Below, in pieces: positions 41,478 to 44,276 of a stretch of 64,000 nt of DNA. The position numbers and the translations under genes were made by a program. Every line of letters starts with the position of its first letter. Position 1 is the stretch's first letter. The stretch is taken from the sequence record MW250786. The stretch is one strand, 5' to 3'. This DNA is from Escherichia phage UPEC06. The notes under the pieces are model-generated. The model ran no database searches. It saw only the letters and a list, made by a program, of their open reading frames with translations, and was not told the DNA's origin.

Positions 41478-42602
41478 TCAGAAAGGCGCGTCATCGTCCC
41501 AATCATCCGGCTCTGTGTCCGGCACATCAGGAATATCACCTGCGGATTCAACGATACTTTGTTGCTCCCATGTAGGTTCTTCTGAAGGTTGTTCCATTTC
41601 TTCCATAACCTTCTTGATCTCTTCCTCTTGCTCACGCAGGAAGTTATCATCCGGCTCAGGAATATCTTCCTCTTTAATATCTGAACGAGTGAGATCACTG
41701 TTTTGTTCAGACAGAGGTTGAATCTCTGCTGCCTTAGGCTTGAAGTCTGGAGAACGATGATCATCTTCTGGATGAGCGGCATACCACTCACGAAGAGTTT
41801 CATAAGGACTCTCTAAGAAGCCCTCTGGCGGTTCCAGATAATCACCCGTGTCAATGTCATAGAACACAGGGAATTTACCAGCACGACCGTGTTTACGGTC
41901 ATCCAGAATAACAAAGTAAGAAGTGTTACGTTGTTTCATCGGGAGTTCTGGATCTTTGTTACGTTCAATACCCCACATATAATAAGTGTTTCGCATCATT
42001 GCACGACTGCCAGCAAACTGCGCTGACTGGACTTGACCACCAAATTCATGAGGCTTGCCAGATTCAGGCTTATTAAGGTGACAGAAGCAATAATAAGTAA
42101 AGCCAAGTTCTTTTGCCAGCTTAGAGATCTCATCCGAGAATCGTTCCAGTTCCTGGTTAGCTTCGGAAGCACTCATACCTTGCACAAGACGAGTGATCGG
42201 GTCAATAAAGATATCTTCACAACCTTCTACAATCACTGCGTGACGGATAGCACCTTTCAGTTCATCCCATACTGCACGACCATAGTTGTTATAATAGATG
42301 ACACTATCACCAACCTCATCTGTAGCTTTGATCAGTTCTTCTTGCTTAAAGTAGCCACGTTGCCCTTCAAATACTTCATTACCCCAAATGTCACGGAAAG
42401 TTCCATCTTCTTGAGGAATCATTACCTTTTCTGCGTTAACAAAGTCTTTATGATAACGCTTACCTGCGATCTTTTTACAGGTAATTTCGTTCTCTTCTTC
42501 AAACTTAAACACCGCAGCTTTTGACTTCTCAATACCCGTGATGTGTTCAACCATTTGGTTAAGAAGTTCAGACTTGCCCATTTTCACCGTTATGTTCAGC
42601 AA
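41478..42602 (-). CDS. T7 gp4-like (DnaB-family) helicase, C-terminal part beginning inside Walker A (putative exon 2)
   Basis: Begins ...VKMGKSELL; CFCHLNKPESGKPHEFGG resembles the T7 gp4 helicase motif as recalled; acidic tail ending DDWDDDAPF. Confidence 0.7.
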   Translation of the reverse strand: MLNITVKMGKSELLNQMVEHITGIEKSKAAVFKFEEENEITCKKIAGKRYHKDFVNAEKVMIPQEDGTFRDIWGNEVFEGQRGYFKQEELIKATDEVGDSVIYYNNYGRAVWDELKGAIRHAVIVEGCEDIFIDPITRLVQGMSASEANQELERFSDEISKLAKELGFTYYCFCHLNKPESGKPHEFGGQVQSAQFAGSRAMMRNTYYMWGIERNKDPELPMKQRNTSYFVILDDRKHGRAGKFPVFYDIDTGDYLEPPEGFLESPYETLREWYAAHPEDDHRSPDFKPKAAEIQPLSEQNSDLTRSDIKEEDIPEPDDNFLREQEEEIKKVMEEMEQPSEEPTWEQQSIVESAGDIPDVPDTEPDDWDDDAPF

Positions 42603-43340
42603 GGTTCGCTACTCCTTGCCCGTTCTCTAAGAACTGCTACATGTCCCCATGCAGACCAGACTATATCTTCAACCCGTAAAACAGGTGCTATGCACTTCGA
42701 GCCGCTTGGCCCTACTCTACTCGGTTCAAGAGCTTTGCTCTTGCCTTTCGATAGTCGTTGCTCCTTCCTCTCAACCGCTTTGTAATCTCTCGAACTGTAT
42801 CGCGATGAATACCAAAATATTGTGCAATTTCTTTCTGAAGCATGGTTGTTTTAATGACCATATCATAAACTTCTTTTTCGAAATCATCATCGAATCGGTT
42901 TGGGTTTCTTCTTCCCGCTTTCCAACCGTGATCAACATTTTGCTTTGTAGTCATCCATTCTAGATTACTATCTGCGTTATTTTTCCTGTCTCTATCTTTA
43001 TGATTAACGACAGGTAGATTATAAGGATTTTCTACATAATGTTCAGCCACAAGTTGATGTATAAATCTCCTAGTGACCTTACCATTCTTACTTAATGAAA
43101 CTCTTAGATACCCTGCACTATTCGTGTCTGGCTTTAGTTTCTTAAGTTTTCGGTACACATCTCCGCGTCTGGTAATTATGTATTGTTCAAAACCCTTTAT
43201 TCTTTTCATTTCAACCTCCCTTTTAATGATAACAAAGAGGTTGAGAGGCTTGGATCAGGATTATCTGTTCTAGACTTCCCCTGAATTCACATAGTATTTA
43301 GTCGAGGCATTACTGCCAAGGCTGGCTAGACTTAATGTTT
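42585..43340 (-). mobile_element. putative group I intron carrying an HNH homing endonuclease ORF
   Basis: ~756 nt between Walker A halves; R-like CAACGACTAT (plus 42751-42760) and S-like AAGATATAGTC (plus 42659-42669) on the - strand; U before proposed 5' splice site and G before 3' splice site; boundaries +/- 3 nt. Confidence 0.6.
42712..43209 (-). CDS. HNH homing endonuclease
   Basis: GYLRVSL...HQLVAEHYVENP...VVNHKDRDRKNNADSNLEW motif set. Confidence 0.8.
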   Translation of the reverse strand: MKRIKGFEQYIITRRGDVYRKLKKLKPDTNSAGYLRVSLSKNGKVTRRFIHQLVAEHYVENPYNLPVVNHKDRDRKNNADSNLEWMTTKQNVDHGWKAGRRNPNRFDDDFEKEVYDMVIKTTMLQKEIAQYFGIHRDTVREITKRLRGRSNDYRKARAKLLNRVE

Positions 43341-44276
43341 ACCAGCACCGATGAAGTAACCTTCACCTGGACGACGACCCAAGGTAAGCTTGGTCATGGT
43401 GGGCCAAGGGAACTTCTTGCCGAGTTTAGGGATCTCATGTGCCTTTTCGCGGAACTGTGAATAAGTCGAGAAACCATCAGGCACATATTCTTTTGGCTTC
43501 ATTGCAGCCCAAAACAACTGATCAGAAAGACCTTTGTTATACATATCGCAAGGGTCCATATCTTCTGGAATATCCACGACCTTCATTTGTGGAATTACAG
43601 AGTATACCGCTGCAACTGCATCTTTACCTTTCATGATCCCTTTGGCCTTCTCTGCTTCTGTCGCACGGTCAGCATCGAAAGCTACGATAATCTCTTCAAA
43701 CTTACTCAGAAGCTTATAGTTATTCTTCTGTGATAAGTTTTGCACGGCATTTGATGTACCGTTAGAGATAGATACAACTGTGAAGTTTGGTTTACGGGTG
43801 GAACCATCCTTCGGTTTGTACTTCTCTGTCAATACCTGCCACAAGATTGCAGCATCGTATTCACCTTCAGTGATAAAGATCATACGTTTGGAAGACTTAT
43901 TTGCACCTTCCAGCCCAAACATATCACAAGCCACAGATTGGAAACCAATAGTTGTAAAGTGACCTTTCTGTTGCTTAGGGATCGTAAGATCACGCTTCTT
44001 AAAACCTACAACCTTACCTTCCAATGTGTACGGAAAATAATGCGCCTCTGGTGTCATACCGTCTTTAGCTGACAACTTGGTACGAATACCAAATCGTTTA
44101 GCTGTCTTTTCGTCGATACCACGCTCAGGGATACTTTTACACGGATAAGTCAATACGTCTTCAACTGTTTCTTCCACACGAGACACACCACCACCATAAT
44201 TACGTGCTACTGAAGCTTTAGGATTTTTATGTCCAAACTTATAACCGCCAAACAGACTTTCGCCAATAGTGCTCAT
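43332..44276 (-). CDS. DNA primase (TOPRIM) fused to N-terminal start of helicase domain (putative exon 1 ends ~43341)
   Basis: TOPRIM motifs IFITEGEYDA and FDADRA; C-terminus TLGRRPGEGYFIGAG is the first half of a Walker A segment, then KH-stop. Confidence 0.7.
   Translation of the reverse strand: MSTIGESLFGGYKFGHKNPKASVARNYGGGVSRVEETVEDVLTYPCKSIPERGIDEKTAKRFGIRTKLSAKDGMTPEAHYFPYTLEGKVVGFKKRDLTIPKQQKGHFTTIGFQSVACDMFGLEGANKSSKRMIFITEGEYDAAILWQVLTEKYKPKDGSTRKPNFTVVSISNGTSNAVQNLSQKNNYKLLSKFEEIIVAFDADRATEAEKAKGIMKGKDAVAAVYSVIPQMKVVDIPEDMDPCDMYNKGLSDQLFWAAMKPKEYVPDGFSTYSQFREKAHEIPKLGKKFPWPTMTKLTLGRRPGEGYFIGAGKH

Follow-up and report, generated by a model that had tools for sequence, protein, structure and literature searches.

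A probable mobile group I intron with a putative HNH endonuclease gene in the Walker A codons of a T7 gp4-like primase-helicase gene of an Escherichia coli phage

Group I introns of the class described here have been known in phages since the 1980s. In Bacillus phage SPO1, such an intron lies in the DNA-polymerase gene and encodes the HNH endonuclease I-HmuI (1U3E), which nicks one strand. The td intron of phage T4, as commonly described, is an IA2 intron that encodes I-TevI; Edgell and Shub reportedly found I-TevI and I-BmoI to be related endonucleases, with the td and thyA introns at different positions of homologous genes. Conserved ATP-binding codons are also the target of inteins, homing-endonuclease elements that sit in the P-loops of helicases such as DnaB, and MCM inteins have been described (PMC10643990). 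In the Vequintavirinae, the nrdA intron of Pectobacterium phage CB7, with the HNH gene CB7_202, splices, as seen by RT-PCR and sequencing (PMC7344957).

The window analysed here, a stretch of 64,000 nt from Escherichia phage UPEC06 (MW250786), very probably contains a mobile phage IA2-type group I intron (43340..42588) in the T7 gp4-like primase-helicase gene of a Septuagintavirus-like (Vequintavirinae) E. coli phage, inserted between codons 312 and 313 in the Walker A P-loop (GAG/VKMGKS, where the slash marks the insertion site). The nrdA intron of CB7 and phiTE (Certrevirus) belongs to the same intron family, in the same subfamily of phages: its 3' part has 82.6% identity over 91 nt, its core can be aligned throughout and covaries, and a homologous HNH ORF lies in the P6a loop, but the host gene (ribonucleotide reductase alpha) and the guide sequence are different and P7.1 is shorter. 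The SPO1 intron is likewise an HNH-encoding group I intron of a phage replication gene, although in another gene and another host phylum, and the ORF of the window has Asn where I-HmuI has Asp74. With the td intron, the locus shares P7.1 and P7.2 (located between P7 and P3'), P9.1 and P9.2, an ORF in P6a whose ribosome-binding site may be hidden in a hairpin, and insertion at conserved active-site codons; in contrast, I-TevI is a GIY-YIG and not an HNH enzyme, and its host gene is that for thymidylate synthase.

The limits of the insert were set by collinear intron-less homologues. Phages LTH01 and A73 each have a single 2046-nt CDS, collinear with 44276..43341 plus 42587..41478, and the 753 nt of the minus strand between these segments have no counterpart there or, more distantly, in CR9 (another genus), in which the primase/helicase is also one gene. 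Therefore, the two ORFs do not occur as separate genes in all homologues. These ORFs, on which the original prediction of a split gene had been based, are present as described: 44276..43332 (minus strand, 314 aa), ending in GEGYFIGAGKH, and 42602..41478 (minus strand), starting at a TTG with MLNITVKMGKSELL and containing CFCHLNKPESGKPHEFGG. Of the two junctions proposed, the one between GGT and GTG at 43341/42587 was fixed by the intron-less homologues and that at 42584 was discarded. The insert is real and measures 753 nt and not ~756.

When 43341 was joined to 42587, the reading ...YFIGAG/VKMGKSELL was obtained, the same as in the intron-less LTH01 and A73 protein, and the conceptually spliced product, GYFIGAGVKMGKSELL, had no difference there from the intron-less proteins. 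In the unspliced reading, exon 1 runs on through AAA CAT TAA (KH and a stop at 43334..43332, minus strand). The ligated junction of the predicted transcript reads ...GGUGCUGGU followed by GUGAAAAUGGGC, and the intron-less allele has GGGGCAGGG and GTCAAAATGGGCAAGAGT on the two sides of the insertion site. A boundary one base to the left (GG/...AAC/GGTG) restores the same codons, but with it the 5' splice site would be preceded by G and the intron would end in C; it was rejected because both group I rules would be broken, whereas the U before the 5' and the G before the 3' splice site, as had been proposed, hold at 43341/42587. Both exons are intact, with nearly all differences from the intron-less relatives being synonymous (one amino-acid difference each). 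The minus strand has no terminator-like site between the two exons, and promoter-like sites within the intron were not commoner than in shuffles. The coordinates of all features are collected in Table 1.

Table 1. Features of the primase-helicase locus and of its intron (coordinates of the window)
Feature	Coordinates	Strand	Remarks
Exon 1	43341..44276	-	ATG at 44276; codons 1-312, last GGT GCT GGT = GAG; TOPRIM/RNA-polymerase domain, linker, first half of Walker A
Group I intron, IA2-like	42588..43340	-	753 nt; 5' end AAACAUUAAG..., 3' end ...GAACAUAACG, terminal G 42588
P1	43321..43346	-	exon GCUGGU (43346..43341) with guide sequence GCCAGC (43326..43321); U43341 forms the U.G wobble at the 5' splice site
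P2	43306..43317	-	hairpin GGCA-GUAA-UGCC, GNRA loop; by eye; loop GAGA in W70 and A5-4
P3, 5' strand	43294..43288	-	CUAUGUG; 5/7 pairs changed on both sides
P4	43284..43279, 43260..43255	-	UCAGGG with UCCUGA; 3/6 pairs changed on both sides
P5	43275..43263	-	GUCU/AGAU; 2/4 pairs changed on both sides
P6/P6a	42762..43254	-	P6: UCC (43254..43252) with GGA (42764..42762)
P6a	43248..43239, 42776..42767	-	CCUCUCAACC with GGUUGAGAGG; with P6 closes the loop holding the endonuclease ORF
Possible hairpin UCAACCUCUUU/AAAGGGAGGUUGA	43209..43244	-	would hide the ribosome-binding site of the ORF; competes with long-range P6a pairing
Intron ORF	42712..43209	-	165 aa; I-HmuI-like HNH with C-terminal helix-turn-helix; SD GGGAGG 43220..43215
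P7	42756..42751, 42664..42659	-	GACUAU with AUAGUC; invariant
P7.1	42750..42722	-	extended hairpin specific to the group of the window
P7.2	42712..42699	-	GGGCC-AAGC-GGCUC; 4/5 pairs changed on both sides
P3, 3' strand	42694..42688	-	UGCAUAG
P8	42686..42672	-	ACCUG-UUUUA-CGGGU; 4/5 pairs changed on both sides; J8/7 = UGAAGAU
P9	42654..42637	-	GGGA loop; covariation helices 10-12 comprise P9-P9.2
P9.1	42634..42622	-	
P9.2	42619..42599	-	5/6 pairs changed on both sides; holds AAGGAG (42617..42612) and TTG (42602..42600)
Exon 2	41478..42587	-	GTG AAA ATG GGC AAG TCT... = VKMGKS...; stop 41480..41478; remaining Walker A, SF4 helicase domain, acidic C-terminal tail
Intrinsic-terminator-like hairpin	41448..41467	-	directly 3' of the gene

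Only after conceptual splicing were a T7 gp4-type TOPRIM primase and a RecA-like helicase with Walker A found in one polypeptide. This protein aligned end to end with T7 gp4 (5IKN, 6N7I, 1Q57; E~2e-20), unbroken across the junction, over query residues 51-529 and including the Walker A (GAGVKMGKS against SGSGMGKS). The TOPRIM motifs predicted in exon 1 were below the cut-off in Pfam (18.9 and 17.7 bits) and were confirmed by the gp4 alignment, in which ITEGEYDA matched VTEGEIDM and IIVAFDADRA matched IILMFDMDEAG. The resemblance of CFCHLNKPESGKPHEFGG to a T7 helicase motif was borne out as well, cfchlnkpesgkphefggqv aligning with vichlknpdkgkaheegrpv. Exon 2 gave a Pfam DnaB_C match of 26.5 bits, and the separate halves fell below Pfam cut-offs. 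An N-terminal primase zinc-binding domain was not recognised; the alignment begins at gp4 residue ~83 (6N7I numbering), and there is one Cys in the first 50 residues of the protein.

At the gathering level of 50 bits, the Rfam group I model RF00028 had no match in the whole window, in which there were two sub-threshold half-matches of 24.5 bits (42823..42637) and 18.1 bits (43369..43117), and a whole-window E-value scan returned the 3' half of the primase-helicase intron only. In contrast, an ORF-less copy of the intron at the same site in phage W70 (2525-2790 of contig L003), 95-97% identical to that of the window in the parts in common, scored 70.4 bits (E=2.7e-17, full model 1-253). The low score of the window is thus due to the 474-nt ORF-containing P6a loop (cut out for a mini-intron), which splits the match. 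The sequences CAACGACTAT (42760..42751) and AAGATATAGTC (42669..42659), taken in the original prediction for the R and S (P7) elements, align to the RF00028 consensus UCAaAGACUA and UgAAGAUAUAGUC, and the composite pattern AACGACTA..AAGC..GATATAGTC was found once in the window and in 0/100 shuffles. A second GATATAGTC at 31264 (plus strand) was within chance expectation and had no Rfam support.

The core from P3 to P9.2 could be drawn, with strong covariation support. When this hand-built structure was tested over nine related introns, 95% of the cells were paired compared to 28-42% with the partners slid, and both-sided changes were observed in 32/65 pairs, a level reached by 0/500 shuffles; as the structure was derived from these same nine sequences, the comparison favours it over the slid controls. 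Each related intron has its own, yet complementary, sequence pair around its ORF in P6/P6a, where the count is partly circular because complementary bases flanking each ORF were chosen when aligning, and P7, being invariant, is uninformative. The outer P7.1 stem was dropped from the count and judged by eye, and P1 was compared by hand outside it, because the MAFFT alignment was unreliable in the former and in the P1/P2 region. In relatives, the P1 guide varies with the local exon (UGGCGU/GCGCCG, AUGCGU/GCGCAU, ACCCGU/GCGGGU, AUGGGU/GCCCAU). The 3' end of the intron, GAACAUAACG before GUG, is a terminal G, and the frame is restored on ligation. The intron has P7.1 and P7.2 inserted between P7 and P3 (3' strand), as well as P9.1/P9.2, the additional helices by which Michel and Westhof reportedly defined the IA2 subgroup; covariation backs P7.2, P9.1 and P9.2.

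The minimum free energy fold of the ORF-deleted intron gave P4, P5, P6, P6a, the P7.1 hairpin, P9, P9.1 and P9.2, without P3, P7 or P8, and was not significantly better than shuffles (z=-1.34); thermodynamics alone is no evidence for the intron fold here. By eye, no convincing complement to GUGAAA was found beside the guide sequence for a P10 pairing with the 3' exon. Because many group I introns have only a weak P10 or can dispense with it, this is not disqualifying. With the ORF-less orthologue and the covariation, the group I identity of the insert RNA is counted as demonstrated.

The sub-threshold Rfam score and the weak z-score, together with another 'DNA helicase' encoded upstream in relatives, would fit a decayed, splicing-defective relic in a primase-helicase gene that is inactive or whose function relies on another helicase. 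Such decay is very improbable: the window lacks none of the core elements of the 70-bit W70 copy, the differences between the two being compensatory (P5 UC/GA vs CG/CG; P8; P9.2) or in loops, the endonuclease ORF is full length, the exons differ from those of intron-less relatives in the near-exclusively synonymous way noted above, and the score is accounted for by the P6a loop.

The predicted HNH ORF is present within the insert, in a frame other than that of exon 1, and its last ~20 codons overlap the 3' strands of P6a and P6, P7 and P7.1. It matched Pfam HNH_3 (28.2 bits, cut-off 24.8) and, over residues 2-106, residues 4-111 of I-HmuI (PDB 1U3E, E=2.7e-14). The motif VVNHKDRDRKNN..NLEW..N is common to seven homologous intron ORFs, the family alignment reading VNHKDxxxxNN..NLEW. 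The His and Asn residues of HNH motifs have catalytic roles. The Asn at the I-HmuI Asp74 position (VVNHKD) was found in 7/7 of the homologous intron ORFs compared and is therefore more likely to be a family trait than a defect. By this homology, the ORF is a putative I-HmuI-type HNH homing endonuclease; no further I-HmuI-like ORF was found in the window by phmmer and motif scan. The hairpin of UCAACCUCUUU and AAAGGGAGGUUGA (-15 kcal/mol, z=-1.79, 13/200 shuffles equally good) is suggestive of a ribosome-binding site that may be hidden.

As HNH genes in Vequintavirinae are often free-standing, including most of the 21 in CB7 (PMC7344957), the insert could be a free-standing HNH gene without a ribozyme, or an intein, but either is scarcely credible. 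About 255 nt of the insert outside the ORF fold into a group I core, ORF-less copies of it exist in W70 and in Klebsiella phage Roth32, and the RF00028 score of the W70 copy and the covariation refute an insertion without ribozyme. The frame of exon 1 meets a stop two codons into the insert and the HNH ORF is not in that frame, which excludes an intein.

A gene that is truly split, its insert kept in the RNA, would yield a 314-aa primase fragment ending in GAGKH and a helicase fragment started at TTG 42602, GTG 42587 or ATG 42581, which would associate after translation. There is precedent in Aeromonas phage Aeh1, in which the fragments of NrdA, split by mobE, associate post-translationally, and the HNH-containing insert CB7_245 of CB7 did not splice (both in PMC7344957); separate CDSs are also given in the GenBank records of phages A5-4, A7_1 and W70. 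The AAGGAG-N9-TTG start of the downstream part, for which a caveat of two polypeptides had been raised, does exist at 42617..42600, but the caveat is weakened because AAGGAG and TTG lie in P9.2 and also occur in the PPWS1 intron, before an unrelated exon, and because the TTG is CTG in A5-4, A7_1 and W70 by compensatory P9.2 changes. Moreover, the break follows strand beta-1 of the RecA-like core, inside the P-loop and not in the primase-helicase linker, and without splicing there would be no reason for a complete group I core to persist under purifying and compensatory evolution. Two separate polypeptides are thus quite improbable, and the proposed group I intron with an HNH ORF splitting the primase-helicase gene in its Walker A is supported.

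Splicing, which we infer from these features, would start from a single transcript with exon 1, intron and exon 2, in which the intron RNA would fold into P1-P9.2. An external guanosine would attack after U43341, held in P1 by the U.G pair with the guide GCCAGC, the freed exon 1 would attack after the terminal G (42588), and GGU would be ligated to GUG, giving a single frame of 681 codons. The I-HmuI-like endonuclease would be translated independently from the P6a loop. In a mixed infection, intron-less alleles would be cleaved or nicked by this enzyme close to the P-loop codons, and repair off the intron-containing copy would transfer the intron with ~40-50 nt of flanking exon per side.

The allele distribution is consistent with such homing. 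The intron is present in the window, A5-4, A7_1 and W70, and absent from LTH01 and A73. Of the 38 differences from LTH01, 15 are within +-60 nt of the junction (Fisher p=7e-10), 15/15 of them synonymous, and this flank haplotype is common to all four intron-plus alleles. The exact 5' junction 24-mer had 0 matches in IMG/VR, so the insertion site was seen only in the window and three GenBank phages.

In the public genomes of A5-4, A7_1 and W70, the pieces of the gene are listed apart as 'hypothetical protein', 'HNH' and 'DNA primase/helicase'. Introns are nowhere mentioned in the genus description (PMC11370258), whose gene counts may be those of a single orthologous gene that carries zero, one or two introns. 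In the literature searched, no account was found of a group I intron within the Walker A codons of a phage primase-helicase gene. The locus is an unannotated case of a well-known type of selfish element and does not alter what is generally understood of group I introns in phages. For phage therapy or engineering, correct expression of this essential replication gene would require that the intron be either deleted or kept intact. Alleles with the intron, without it and with an ORF-less copy are available in closely related, cultivable phages of E. coli K-12 and, together with an orthologous intron shifted by 12 nt, make a convenient system for homing, co-conversion and re-targeting.

This shifted intron was found in IMG/VR contig L013, where the orthologous gene carries it 12 nt downstream of the site in the window; the intron RNAs are 70.7% identical over ~710 nt, with the guide GCCCAU vs GCCAGC. 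The pair recalls I-TevI and I-BmoI in being an orthologous intron and HNH gene (70% aa identity) at a shifted site, but differs in the small shift of 12 nt and in the clear orthology of the intron RNAs. More distant members of the family were found in primase/helicase genes of Autographiviridae (Klebsiella phages vB_Kp_Z1 and Roth32; IMG/VR L014, L018, L019 and L021), and pieces of these intron-split genes are annotated in GenBank as separate genes. Like the intron of the window, they lie in Walker A codons of a gp4-type gene (WGAGTGV/GKTE in Z1; ..KMG/KSEVV in L019 and L021), but 8 and 12 nt downstream, with the guides GCGCCG and GCCCAU and HNH proteins that are 31-50% identical. A family member adjoining GKS was also seen in a terminase.

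In other phages, related introns are thus found at three positions, all within 12 nt of the same P-loop codons. Tentatively, and at somewhat less than an even chance, one lineage of intron and endonuclease may have moved its insertion point within one 12-nt stretch of these codons, lying at GAG/VKMGKS here and at GAGVKMG/KS in L013, and more distantly related members lying at GV/GKT, at MG/KSE and beside the terminase GKS, with the endonuclease continuing to recognise P-loop DNA while changes in the guide sequence re-target the ribozyme. If so, it could become possible to test directly how cleavage and insertion sites are uncoupled and what part the guide sequence plays when an intron relocates. 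Helicase P-loop inteins lie in the same kind of codons, but are removed at the protein level, whereas the intron described here is predicted to be removed from the RNA.

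The reading frames of the split primase-helicase gene are listed in the table below. All features described in the original prediction were found in place, including the insert between the two parts of the gene, although its length is 753 nt and not about 756 nt. In Pfam, ORF 1 gave weak Toprim matches and ORF 2 a DnaB_C match near threshold, whereas the middle ORF exceeded the cut-off for HNH_3 (28.2 against 24.8 bits).

Features of the split primase-helicase locus in the window
Feature	Position	Strand	Remarks
ORF 1	44276..43332	-	314 aa; C-terminal end ...GEGYFIGAGKH, then stop
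Middle ORF	43209..42712	-	165 aa; between ORF 1 and ORF 2, in another frame
ORF 2	42602..41478	-	TTG start; reads MLNITVKMGKSELL...
P6a strands closing the ORF loop	43248..43239 / 42776..42767	-	CCUCUCAACC / GGUUGAGAGG; complementary
Terminator-like hairpin	within 41467..41414	-	AAACCGCCTTCGGGCGGTTT plus T-run; strong; just after the gene
Promoter-like site	within 41467..41414	-	TTGACA-17-TATACT, near consensus (11/12); immediately after the hairpin

By megablast against phage genomes, the window groups with the E. coli Vequintavirinae A5-4, A7_1, W70, A73 and LTH01, recently described as Septuagintavirus (PMC11370258). LTH01 and A73 carry a single 2046-nt CDS annotated as 'DNA primase/helicase', which by BLAST is collinear with window 44400..43342 plus 42588..41400 with no sequence between. 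Cronobacter phage CR9, which belongs to a different genus within the subfamily, likewise has a single uninterrupted gene; therefore, the two ORFs are not always separate genes among homologues. The junction reads ATC GGG GCA GGG GTC AAA ATG GGC AAG AGT in the intron-less DNA and ATC GGT GCT GGT, AAACAUUAAG...GAACAUAACG, GTG AAA ATG GGC AAG TCT in the window. Conceptual splicing after U43341 and after G42588 restores IGAGVKMGKS, identical to the intron-less protein. Group I introns require a U before the 5' splice site and a terminal G at the intron 3' end, and the chosen boundary has both, as had been proposed. A boundary one base leftward restores the same codons, but places a G before the 5' splice site and a C at the intron 3' end.

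Residues 51 to 529 of the 681-aa conceptual product align with the T7 gp4 structures 5IKN, 6N7I and 1Q57 (E about 2e-20), unbroken across the junction (gegyfigagvkmgksell versus GEVIMVTSGSGMGKSTFV). The alignment includes the TOPRIM acidic motifs and pairs cfchlnkpesgkphefgg with vichlknpdkgkaheeg of gp4, so that the resemblances to T7 gp4 noted in the original prediction were correct. In contrast to T7 gp4, the window protein has no N-terminal zinc-finger domain: the alignment begins at gp4 residue ~83, and the first 50 codons of exon 1 (44276..44127) contain only one Cys. This raises the question of how, or whether, the primase-helicase recognises priming sites.

Rfam gave no match in the window at gathering level. 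Against the group I model RF00028 (threshold 50 bits), partial matches were obtained in E-value mode for P1-P6 (43369..43117, 18.1 bits) and for the 3' end, which includes UGAAGAUAUAGUC and P9 (42823..42637, 24.5 bits, E=7e-4 for a 1.1-kb search), the match being split and below threshold because of the ORF. In W70, this site is occupied by a natural 283-nt copy of the intron from which window 43245..42770 is deleted, and this ORF-less copy matches the full model with 70.4 bits (E=2.7e-17). The proposed Rfam check thus gave only sub-threshold matches in the window itself and a match above threshold in W70.

Related introns were gathered via the conserved 3' part; their host genes encode primase/helicase in Klebsiella Z1 and Roth32, Erwinia VL73 and Vibrio JSF38, RNA polymerase in Pectobacterium PPWS1, and nrdA in CB7 and phiTE. 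Nine sequences were aligned with each ORF-bearing loop replaced by GAAA, and a core was drawn by hand on the window, comprising P3, P4, P5, P6, P6a, P7, a P7.1 hairpin, P7.2, P8, P9, P9.1 and P9.2. This P3-P9.2 structure is 95% paired over the alignment, with changes on both sides in 32 of 65 pairs; P7 is invariant across the nine introns, four P6a pairs were picked as complementary bases flanking each ORF, and the structure derives from one of the sequences aligned. None of 500 shuffles reached any of five covariation measures, and sliding the partners by 1-3 columns lowered pairing to 28-42%. The foldable core that had been anticipated is thus supported by covariation. P1 was misaligned by MAFFT and was therefore inspected manually. 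The window exon GCUGGU base-pairs with GCCAGC and forms U.G at the splice site, and the guide sequence of the relatives tracks the local exon (UGGCGU/GCGCCG, AUGCGU/GCGCAU, ACCCGU/GCGGGU, AUGGGU/GCCCAU). The P7.1/P7.2 and P9.1/P9.2 elements correspond to the subgroup IA2 architecture, as in T4 introns. The folding energy of the mini-intron was not significantly low against shuffles (z=-1.34), and no convincing P10 pairing was found in the window intron. A second exact GATATAGTC at 31264..31272 (+) had no Rfam support and is within chance expectation (two or more in 4 of 100 shuffles).

The gene could instead remain unspliced and yield two separate proteins, which we regard as very improbable. 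The AAGGAG (42617..42612) and TTG (42602..42600) seen as a possible start of ORF 2 belong to helix P9.2 (5' strand/loop and 3' strand, respectively), and the PPWS1 intron has the same AAGGAG...CCTTG ahead of a different exon. In A5-4, A7_1 and W70, P9.2 is GCAGGG/CCCUGU, so that TTG becomes CTG. Moreover, the break lies inside the P-loop after strand beta-1, not in an interdomain linker, and terminator-like sites are absent between the exons, one being located directly after the gene. The CB7 nrdA intron, a member of the aligned family, splices in vivo, whereas another HNH insert in the same study does not (PMC7344957).

The distribution and flanks of the intron are evidence for mobility. Among six alleles, it is present in four (window, A5-4, A7_1 and W70, the last without ORF) and absent from two. 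Exon 1 (936 nt) has eight differences from LTH01, all in its last 43 nt, and exon 2 has seven in its first 50 nt; in total, 15 of 38 differences lie no more than 60 nt from the junction (Fisher p=7e-10), all 15 synonymous. This flank haplotype is common to the four intron-plus alleles, which differ at other positions, and it contains a G-to-T change at -1 needed by P1. Such clustering on a shared haplotype is the classic pattern expected of co-conversion during homing.

The HNH protein matches I-HmuI (PDB 1U3E, E=2.7e-14) and shares VNHKDxxxxNN..NLEW with six homologous ORFs of the intron family. In every relative, the sequences flanking the ORF are a different yet complementary pair. The last ~20 HNH codons overlap P6a', P6', P7 and P7.1, and exactly these are left by the W70 deletion. 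A predicted local hairpin between the HNH ribosome-binding site and part of the 5' strand of P6a (-15 kcal/mol, z=-1.79) is suggestive only. In PPWS1 (locus record L008, 1934-2440), the P6a-loop ORF is non-homologous (14% identity, no VNHKD motif); therefore, ORFs have been exchanged between similar ribozyme cores. The window HNH protein is only 85% identical to that of A5-4 and A7_1 (L002, 2685-3182), whereas the flanking exons show about 96-98% DNA identity (51-73 differences in 2046 nt); therefore, the endonuclease evolves faster than its host gene. For the primase-helicase, a single amino-acid difference separates the window from each of the two intron-less relatives compared. In the A7_1 GenBank record (L005, 2776-3279), a hypothetical protein is annotated antisense to the HNH ORF, probably a gene-calling error.

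Ten loci were found in IMG/VR with a 28-mer from P7'-P9. One of them, L013 (IMGVR_UViG_3300031942_000080, (-); intron at 799-1522 of the reverse complement), carries orthologues of the primase-helicase (66-77% aa identity), of the intron (70.7% nt identity across positions 43-753 of the window intron) and of the HNH protein (70% aa identity). The L013 intron is inserted 12 nt downstream (GAGVKMG/KSEW), uses GCCCAU as guide sequence and lacks P2. Two 49-51 kb phages (L019, L021) carry family introns at the same MG/KSE position with the same P1; the KSEVV exon-2 start is shared by L018, its 5' junction and P1 not being recovered. Z1, Roth32 (an ORF-less copy) and L014 have a family intron at GV/GKT of a Gajwadongvirus-type primase/helicase, and in L016 a family intron immediately precedes the GKS codons in a gene for a terminase large subunit (Pfam Terminase_6N, 35.3 bits). 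Therefore, the family repeatedly occupies P-loop codons, with three positions inside a 12-nt stretch in gp4-type genes. In GenBank, the pieces of these Walker A-site genes in the other phages are annotated as separate genes.

W70 has a second intron in the same gene, a different family member (L003, 3438-4283; 846 nt, own 183-aa HNH), after ATGATGCGT, ...GCA ATG ATG CGT (SRAMMR/NTYYMWG), equivalent to window 41991/41990. Its 3' part scores 24.7 bits in Rfam, and it is absent from the window, LTH01, A73, A5-4 and A7_1. Its P1, AUGCGU/GCGCAU, is identical to that of VL73 and JSF38 at a non-homologous primase/helicase site (FVDA/L, versus MMR/N in W70), which would fit relocation to any site with the same hexamer, e.g. 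by reverse splicing, or could be chance.

Group I introns with homing endonucleases have long been known in phage replication and nucleotide-metabolism genes, such as T4 td, nrdB and sunY and the SPO1 DNA polymerase gene with I-HmuI, and CB7 provides one in the same subfamily, Vequintavirinae. Judged from its sequence, the window insert is very probably a splicing-competent mobile group I intron; the original call was correct, and the intron is of known type, unannotated until now. The literature searched contains no description of a group I intron interrupting the Walker A motif of a phage primase-helicase. The genus description mentions no intron, HNH or homing and lists the gene pieces in A73 and W70 as 'exclusively detected' helicases (PMC11370258). 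This pattern probably reflects a single orthologous gene that has 0, 1 or 2 introns. The most interesting lead is the apparent 12-nt site shift between the orthologous introns and endonucleases of L013 and the window. I-TevI and I-BmoI are the known analogue of such a shift.
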